From NCBI GenBank assembly GCA_030264375.1, contig JASCQW010000133.1, forward strand, positions 43,862,003 to 43,926,002: a DNA stretch of 64,000 bases, given 5' to 3'. Every line of letters starts with the position of its first letter. Position 1 is the first letter of the stretch. Position numbers and translations under genes: made by a program. This document shows, piece by piece, positions 45,240-47,286 of this stretch. Under the pieces are notes generated by a model. The model was given only the letters and a program-made list of their open reading frames with translations. It had not been told where the DNA came from and did no database searches. Source of the stretch: Carcharhinus longimanus (lineage: Eukaryota).

Positions 45240-46839
45240 CTGAAAGGAAGAGGAAAAACAAGTTGTAATAGCTTTTATTTTGCCTAACATCTAAATCACT
45301 CCATCATTGTGACGCTCTAAGACTGTCAAAATGAATTAAACACATCCCCTGATCACCACGCACAATCAAAATGAACTAATGATTGATCAATATTATTAGT
45401 TGCTAATCATTTTCGACTTGTCATGAACTACTTACGATTTTTTGGAAAAAGAATCGATAAACAGCTTTTAATAATTACTTCTACATATTTCATCTTTAAA
45501 CAATTAAGGGACATTAAGAAATGGAAAGTCTTCACACACAGCCATTTGGCATGGCAGCTGCTGCGGAATATAATAACTGTGTATACAGAACACATGCATA
45601 ATTTCATTAATTATAGCCATTACCAGATGTCTGCCACTTAGTCAGCATAAACAACATTAATCACAAAAACATACACTAGGTAGATTATACACACACTTCT
45701 TTATGACCGTAATTAGACCACATGGTACATTTTTTTACATAAAAAAATTGAAAACACATTCTGCAACAAGCAGTTAGACTGCTTTTCTTCGTAAGTTTTT
45801 TTTTGGAAAATTTGGAAATGGCATTTCAAAAGGAGTAGACATGCATGCAGCTTGCACAAGCACCATGATCAGCTGGTGTGTAAGCCAGAACAAATTAAGT
45901 TAATTGTTTTTAAACACTAGTCAAAGTAACAAAACAATAGCCAACTGAGCAAAGAGCCAGATTCTATGGATATATGGTCTCAATGATTTAAACCATACAT
46001 TGTTAACTCTAACTATGCTACAACAACAGTGTTTGTGTGTTAGAAGTTATAGAACTGCTAATGTTTTCAGTTCACAGAAAGAATATGTATAAAAACAGCA
46101 CTGTGGATATATTTATACTTTATTCTTCCACACTGGGCTACTGTGGTATTTCACTTTTTGCTAGTACGCAAGCTCATATGGCATATATTTATGATTGTAT
46201 TCAATTATTTTGTCTTGATGAATAAAAAAGGTTCAGTGCACTAAAATTTAAATCTGTAATCCTGAAATAAGTATAGAACAAATATGTGTTCCAAGGCCCA
46301 GAAAGGATTTGTAATTTCTCCATCTTTTGACTACACAACAGCTTAAAGCACAATAAAGTGCCTTGGGATGTTTTACTATGTTAAAGGTGCGACATAGATG
46401 AAAGTTGCTGTGGCTCATCAAGTTCCGAAACAACTTCTCGTGGCTGTTAACAGTTTGTGCTATTTTAAAATAGCAGGGCCATATTAACTTAACACTCATC
46501 AAGTATTAAACAAATTTTAGGATACTATTCTCTTTAAGCATTACTTGACAGTGACGCCAGAAGTTTGAAGTCCAATGTACTGGAATGTGCATAAAGAATC
46601 TCAAAACAAACACATGAACTACCATCCTTAATTGGTTGTCCATTGATTGTGTGGTCAAAAGATATCACAGGAGATTCAGAATAGAAAAATAAGTGCCACT
46701 GGTGTTTTCCTTTTTAAGAACCACATTAGCCAACCCATGGTCACTATGGCAAAAGAGATGGAAGGATTTTTTTTGTAAGGGAAAAGGGGGAGTCAAGAGA
46801 TGCTCTACTTATCCTCACTTTTCTGCCTGGGGTATGCAC

Positions 46840-47057
46840 CATAGGTGGTGCAGTGGGCGGCATGAGTGGAGTCGGTGGCAGACTCGCAGGGAAAGGAGCA
46901 AACGTGTGCTGATGTGTGTGTTGATGCGTGTGCTGATGCTGGTGTTGATGTTGATGAAACTCTGCCCTCAAGAATGGTGGCGGGGCTAGCGACCCTGCCC
47001 TGTCGGAACTCTGAACCAAAAACCGGTTGTTCAACTCCTGCCTCAGCAGTTCATGCT
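46840..47057 (-). CDS. FBRSL1: FBRSL1 HQ/HT-repeat exon (exon 9 equivalent); alternative donor extends it to 46819
   Basis: Acceptor ttttctcttccag|AG; encodes [56 protein letters not shown]...APPM; 218 nt, phase 1 to 0. Confidence 0.95.
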
Positions 47058-47125
47058 CTGGAAGAGAAAAAAGAAACACAAGGGCCGTGGGCCAGTCAGT
47101 TGGAAAAAAAAGGCCAAATATTCAC

Positions 47126-47286
47126 CTGGCATTCCCTGTTTCTGCAGGTCATGCTGTGGTGGTTTTCTACATGAGGACTCATTGGTGGAGGTAACAGAGA
47201 TGCCTGTGACAAAGCACCAATCAGAATTCCCGACTGAGGCTGACAATACATGATTGGTTGGTTGAATGATATCAACAGGCTGGTAT
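47126..47286 (-). CDS. FBRSL1: FBRSL1 alternative exon (DTSLLISFNQPIMYCQPQSGILI...CRNRECQ); shorter form 47218-47286
   Basis: Strong acceptor ttctcttctgtctttag|AT, donor CAG|gtgaat; 161 nt, phase 1 to 0, open frame; closely resembles the recalled human FBRSL1 segment DASLAVSFSQPIMYCQPHSGILIG...CRPRECQ. Confidence 0.82.

Follow-up and report, generated by a model that had tools for sequence, protein, structure and literature searches.

Alternative exons 9a and 9b of FBRSL1 in Carcharhinus longimanus: two splice paths in related organisms, a conserved exon 9a and a predicted change at the front of a corepressor-binding region

FBRSL1 and its exon 9 region

The window, a stretch of 64,000 nucleotides from the genome of Carcharhinus longimanus (contig JASCQW010000133.1, forward-strand positions 43,862,003 to 43,926,002), contains an orthologue of FBRSL1, as a sequence-only reading of the same DNA had proposed. 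A named fibrosin-like 1 protein of Mustelus asterias (isoform X9, P0128) maps colinearly from 55112 to 17317, its main blocks being 86-100% identical to the window, its exon 8 96% identical (tblastn) and its exon 9a 100% identical over 54 aa, and the Auts2 family domain was found (PF15336, E = 1.4e-12, Pfam). The octahistidine tract (H8), described as specific to AUTS2 in the accessible part of PMC7732068, is not found in the last-exon ORF of the window gene, and the PPPY motif is not in its exon 9b but in another locus of the genome (L002). The orthology follows from the colinear match and the Auts2 domain, together with the lack of PPPY and H8 at these places.

The same genome (G000) carries a paralogous HX exon at two further loci: L002, which has the PPPY motif and is apparently AUTS2-like, and L003, apparently FBRS-like. 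Exon 9b of the window is 77% identical to the exon of the AUTS2-like locus. Exon 9a is present in a single copy in G000 and is absent from L002 and L003. In all three paralogs the HX exon ends in a 21-nt tandem donor (window 46819-46840; L002 1696-1750; L003 905-960), and the intron start that follows is nearly identical among the three, the FBRS-like locus included; in the available text on zebrafish (PMC5555464) the tandem donor is named for auts2a and fbrsl1 only.

Table 1. Features of the exon 8 to exon 10 region of FBRSL1 (positions in the window).
Feature	Position	Strand	Description
Exon 8 of FBRSL1	49286..49557	-	Upstream common exon, ends in phase 1; seen in contig pieces and joints
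Exon 9a (exon A)	47126..47286	-	161 nt, 54 aa, no HX; alternative to 9b; joints 49286>47286 and 47126>45239
Short 9a	47218..47286	-	69 nt, 23 aa, phase 1-1; ends at internal GT donor
9a-9b intron	47058..47125	-	68 nt; predicted branch point CTGAC
Exon 9b (exon B), long form	46819..47057	-	239 nt; joints 49286>47057 and 46819>45239
Exon 9b, short form	46840..47057	-	218 nt, from second donor at 46840
HQ/HT (HX) repeat	46903..46956	-	18 codons within exon 9b; read from the sequence
Exon 10	45189..45239	-	Downstream common exon, 51 nt, starts in phase 0; joints and pieces

Direct reading confirmed the positions and phases first given for exons 9a and 9b (there A and B), which have AG and GT ends (Table 1). 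The lengths of exon 9a (161) and exon 9b (218 or 239) are all 2 mod 3. Among ten joins tested, the frame into exon 10 is kept by 8-9a-10, by 8-9b-10 with either form of 9b and by 8-short 9a-9b-10, and is lost, with stops, when full 9a is joined to 9b, when the intron between them is retained, when both exons are skipped and when short 9a stands alone. The same test bears out two earlier statements, that joining full 9a to 9b shifts the frame and that exon 9a holds an internal donor at 47218 in frame with 9b.

Tandem CAG acceptors were observed at the start of exon 8, where contigs of runs X12 and X14 begin at 49554 and those of the remaining runs at 49557. Small exons at 36112-36204 and 37684-37719, between the equivalents of exons 12 and 14, match the Mustelus model only in part and are probably further alternative exons. 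An integrase-like fragment lies near 7260-7740, and degraded sequences at 2820-4378 and 28605-29859, within and beyond the gene, are presumably LINE-like reverse-transcriptase fragments.

Splice joints and conservation of exon 9a

Contigs were obtained from 8 of 22 listed runs, representing eight studies and related organisms A-H, with the run type guessed to be RNA, since none of the 22 is recorded as such; contigs lose rare forms and are read here as showing presence, neither absence nor level. GT-AG introns at the predicted borders are skipped exactly by contigs of the 8 runs. The joint from exon 8 to 9a was found in 7 of them and a loose end in the eighth, so that the acceptor at 47286, a point on which exon 9a might have failed, is in use. 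The joint from 9a to 10 occurs in all four runs of one set, and an exon-10 loose end in three of the four runs of the other. Exon 8 is joined to 9b in 2/8 runs, and 9b to exon 10 in two of four, with a loose end in two of four. Three of the four joints that had been predicted (49286 to 47286, 49286 to 47057 and 47126 to 45239) were recovered, and a joint from 9a to 9b (47126>47057) in none of the eight runs. The either/or use of the two exons, first proposed from phases and spacing, is supported by these paths, 8-9a-10 and 8-9b-10, each in frame, within the limits of contigs that lose rare forms and with models that hold parts of both exons annotated in mammals. Exon 9b had been drawn with its end at 46840; the donor seen is 46819, and 46840 is used in 0/8 runs.

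A retrocopy is an unlikely origin of the joints, given the one copy of 9a in G000. Contig depth, which cannot rank parts of a gene, is higher on the 9a than on the 9b path in every run (for example 65.8 versus 8.8, 119 versus 26 and 14.8 versus 9.5) and gives only a hint that 9a dominates. Across the eight runs exon 9a differs from the window at 0-1 of 161 bases, always at 47171, and exon 8 at 0-9; the low divergence of 9a suggests that silent sites may be constrained. In each of the four runs of one set, a large number of unrelated contigs are drawn to a short repeat at 46354-46410, within intron 9.

The exon pair 9a/9b of zebrafish fbrsl1, published by Kondrychyn et al. (2017, PMC5555464) and reported there to be mutually exclusive, is the same as exons A and B. 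Zebrafish 9b encodes 88 aa and the published isoforms differ by 34 aa (1249-1215 in the accessible text), so zebrafish 9a has 54 aa (88-54 = 34), the length encoded by exon A.

Homologues of exon 9a, on whose existence the sequence-only reading depended, were found across jawed vertebrates, vertebrate FBRSL1 included, in agreement with the antiquity claimed for the pair. A search of 1.84 billion representatives gave 23 matches, of which 22 are true relatives (59-98% identical) and one (P0021) is a chance match driven by a repeat. With a platypus query, each of the best 120 of 735 matches lacks HX and has full 9a followed directly by exon 10; these matches cover sharks (two species), teleosts, coelacanth, amphibians, reptiles, birds, marsupials and placentals. 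Exon 9a of non-placentals (fish, frog, bird and platypus included) is 87-96% identical to the window peptide, versus 57-78% for exon 8; the corresponding values in placentals are 72-76% and 50-51%. A metagenome scan gave one match, by chance.

Judged by sequence similarity, 9a and 9b are not tandem-duplicate exons: profiles of 18 9a and 37 9b peptides gave an HHalign probability of 0.26% and a best E of 0.27. The 9a peptide has no match in Pfam or Atlas and no confident AlphaFold model (pLDDT 57.6, pTM 0.13); its conservation points to a putative binding segment. A zinc site in the tail of 9a was considered and dropped, as teleosts carry Trp at the first Cys.

The short intron and the internal donor

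The predicted branch A at 47096 is at +30 from the 9a donor, at -39 from the 9b acceptor and 122 nt from the internal donor, and all A's of the intron except that of the acceptor lie at +4 to +38 from the 9a donor. Since every candidate A is at +38 or less, the spacing is below the limit of about 50 nt between donor and branch point given in the accessible parts of PMC5740500 and PMC7969005, with the branch point being a predicted one. U1 on the 9a donor would then leave no room for U2 to assemble on the branch point of 9b, and in this genome any RNA that contained full 9a together with 9b, or retained the intron, would run into a premature stop. Joint inclusion is likely prevented in two ways, by crowding of branch point and donor and by the frameshift. 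Read-through peptides of other vertebrates show the same motif frames close behind 9a, from which the orthologous introns also appear to be short. One contig of run X12 is unspliced from exon 9a across the short intron and 9b and is then joined to exon 10; this contig, together with the retained-intron models of placentals described below, fits an intron that is hard to splice.

The internal donor at 47218 is a weak site with four matches and two wobbles to U1, scoring like a median GT: U1 pairing is equal or better at 53% of the 2058 GT sites in the gene span. Exon 9a contains nine internal GTs, three of them in phase 1. As the donor at 47218 has phase 1 and is 122 nt away from the branch A, its use would lift the steric block and the frameshift together, and would yield the 23-aa head of 9a followed by the HX exon.

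Such a hybrid is well annotated in placentals. With a felid query, 70 of the best 120 of 872 matches are models that cut 9a right after GILI and join it to 9b; a further 47 keep the intron between the two exons, in frame, and the remaining 3 have other forms. No human record stood among the matches listed. The hybrid occurs in felids, seals, mustelids, canids, horses, bats, shrews, pangolin, deer and dolphins. These models are computed annotations, and their junction falls at the codon predicted from the shark sequence, presumably because a donor at the GILI position escapes both the steric block and the frameshift. The same junction is present in one of seven models of a sturgeon cluster. Four models in which full 9a is joined to 9b (P0009, P0149, P0150 and P0153) appear to be artefacts of gene prediction, with 9b trimmed to hold the frame. 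In many placentals (P0012, P0014, P0228, P0264 and P0265) the 9a-9b intron can be read through in frame over about 24 codons, and its retention would give a protein with full 9a and 9b; in this genome it leads to a stop.

Among non-mammals, an eel query returned no hybrid in its best 120 of 878 matches (78 classified, 42 shared with the platypus listing). A shark hybrid would be expected at 108, 114 and 35 bits, below all three list cut-offs (118, 151 and 164 bits), and the null is therefore restricted to teleosts. Hybrids were seen in 0/90 bird and reptile, 0/14 coelacanth, 0/43 frog-group, 0/5 shark, 0/10 marsupial and 0/30 teleost members of the clusters scanned. Except for the teleost set, these clusters had been built from 9a seeds and contained no 9b-only member, and they are not counted as absence.

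The three-way switch put forward in the sequence-only reading is supported in part. The in-frame hybrid at the predicted codon exists in annotated placental isoforms; in the shark relatives the expected junction, 47218 to 47057, appears in 0/8 runs, and outside placentals the hybrid is found, among the models listed, in a single one from sturgeon. It is fairly probable, and compatible with the exclusion mechanism described above, that the shark donor is effectively unused: sharks, like most vertebrates, would have a two-way switch, with the hybrid as a placental side path or partly a product of annotation and the shark GT kept only through a Gly codon in a constrained exon. Besides the missing junction and the ordinary score of the site, this is favoured by the residue after that Gly, Ala in sharks and Thr elsewhere, which changes intron position +3 and may thereby affect the donor, and by the eel query, in which a teleost hybrid should have ranked high. 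On the other side are the same junction codon in carnivores, bats, horses, deer, dolphins, shrews, pangolin and the sturgeon model, the score of a shark hybrid relative to the list cut-offs, and the loss of rare forms from contigs. The hybrid path is probably minor or unused in sharks.

Consequences for FBRSL1 and comparison with known systems

FBRSL1 is a disease gene and competes with AUTS2 on ncPRC1.3/1.5. According to the accessible part of one preprint (bioRxiv 10.64898/2026.10.20.760506), the human FBRSL1 protein of 1045 aa is a repressor that binds CoREST/CTBP/LSD1; its residues 1-163 bind PCGF3, and residues 406-592 are sufficient for repression. Exon 9 of human FBRSL1 has 218 nt and encodes residues 405-477, with HX at 440-459 (PMC9008325, Tables S2 and S3). 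Thus, the exon exchanged for 9a is also the one with whose first codon the minimal repressor starts, and 9a would take the place of the first 73 aa of this repressor, an exchange that is known but neglected. The available text of the preprint uses "isoform" and "exon" a single time each, in neither case for exon 9. All forms would keep the N-terminal docking site for PCGF3, so that entry into ncPRC1.3/1.5 would be the same for 9a and 9b proteins; the effector would differ, as the first 73 aa of the mapped repressor (human residues 406-592) come from 9b and are replaced in the 9a form. The repressor was mapped as a whole, in human cells and in that one preprint, and exon 9b may therefore be dispensable for CoREST binding.

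Our preferred explanation, to which we give a probability of roughly 60%, is that exons 9a and 9b are used either/or in the related organisms, likely through crowding of the 9b branch point against the 9a donor, and that the predicted result is a swap of the front of the corepressor region for an unrelated, conserved binding segment. Exon choice likely changes gene silencing by FBRSL1.

Two other explanations of the arrangement are improbable. In one, the arrangement mainly tunes the amount of FBRSL1 through degradation of stop-containing RNA, exon choice being secondary. The retained intron of run X12, the stops in all retained or double-inclusion joins of this genome, the 0-1 differences in 161 nucleotides of 9a and a retained-intron event of mouse Fbrsl1 (one table row, intron unspecified, in the accessible part of PMC8395343) are in its favour, but each single-exon path keeps the frame, conservation of the 9a peptide is strong and the stop is not conserved, the retained intron being open and in frame in the 47 placental models. 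In the other, of comparably low probability, the HX exon recruits p300 as it does in AUTS2 (PMC8602103, PMC9008325, 10.1101/2021.03.30.437620, as far as accessible) and the switch sets the presence of an activation module, which the similarity of window 9b to the AUTS2-like exon would suit; in the accessible text of the preprint, however, p300 was recovered only with AUTS2, human FBRSL1 with its near-perfect HX repeat repressed a reporter by about 50%, and FBRSL1 406-592 repressed while the AUTS2 region activated. The view of the HX exon as an activation module, part of the sequence-only reading, is contradicted for human FBRSL1 by these results of one preprint.

The preferred swap of the repressor front can be extended to a switch throughout jawed vertebrates that determines FBRSL1-ncPRC1.3 output: the 9a form, which may be the main long isoform, would drop the front of the CoREST region and show a near-invariant 23-aa motif to another partner, and use of the internal donor would add a third protein in which this motif is combined with HX. 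This wider version is tentative and, in our estimate, rather unlikely. The long isoform of the rescue and ChIP papers (PMC7519918, PMC11128277 and PMC12449339, in their accessible parts) is I1 (NM_001142641.2), an HX-bearing 9b form, and the full-length construct of the preprint has the same length, 1045 aa. Human I1 failed to rescue Xenopus morphants, and those authors credit rescue to a short N-terminal isoform; if the wider version is true, the failure would reflect the 9b form. The exon swap raises the question of whether a 9a protein represses, and whether it rescues the frog morphants that the 9b form did not.

Within the coverage of our literature search, which left most subscription journals outside, the zebrafish paper alone describes the exon pair, and the steric mechanism, the conservation of 9a from shark to mammal and the link to the repressor were not encountered. 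The pair itself is known; the third form is present in database annotation, and no description of it was found in that search. The zebrafish gene agrees with the shark gene in the position of the exons, the 34-aa size difference and the 21-nt tandem donor on 9b (PMC5555464), and both zebrafish forms have been cloned; in its accessible text, unlike here, the paper has no exclusion mechanism, no vertebrate survey of 9a and no internal-donor hybrid. Annotated FBRSL1 models (NCBI, UniRef) likewise include forms with 9a joined to exon 10 and, in placentals, hybrids of short 9a and 9b, but they are computed models.

Exon 9 of AUTS2 is the paralog of 9b, and AUTS2 also makes a protein without HX, but from an internal transcription start in exon 9, according to the parts of the literature available. 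The AUTS2-like and FBRS-like loci of this genome, unlike FBRSL1, are without the 9a exon, and the HX region of FBRSL1 represses in the single direct test, unlike that of AUTS2, which binds p300.

The accessible part of a human atlas supplement lists FBRSL1 exons of 40-46 nt, not 9a/9b (2 of 3 rows of one file). Exons 4a/4b of OGDH resemble the FBRSL1 pair in having a short intron, a branch point near the upstream donor and a frameshift upon double inclusion (PMC7969005), and the same steric layout, with less than 50 nt from donor to branch point, is reported for 57 human clusters (PMC5740500), as far as these sources are accessible. FBRSL1 9a and 9b, unlike these, are not duplicates and differ in length (161 versus 218 or 239 nt), and exon 9a, unlike these, has an in-frame internal donor that can bypass the block.
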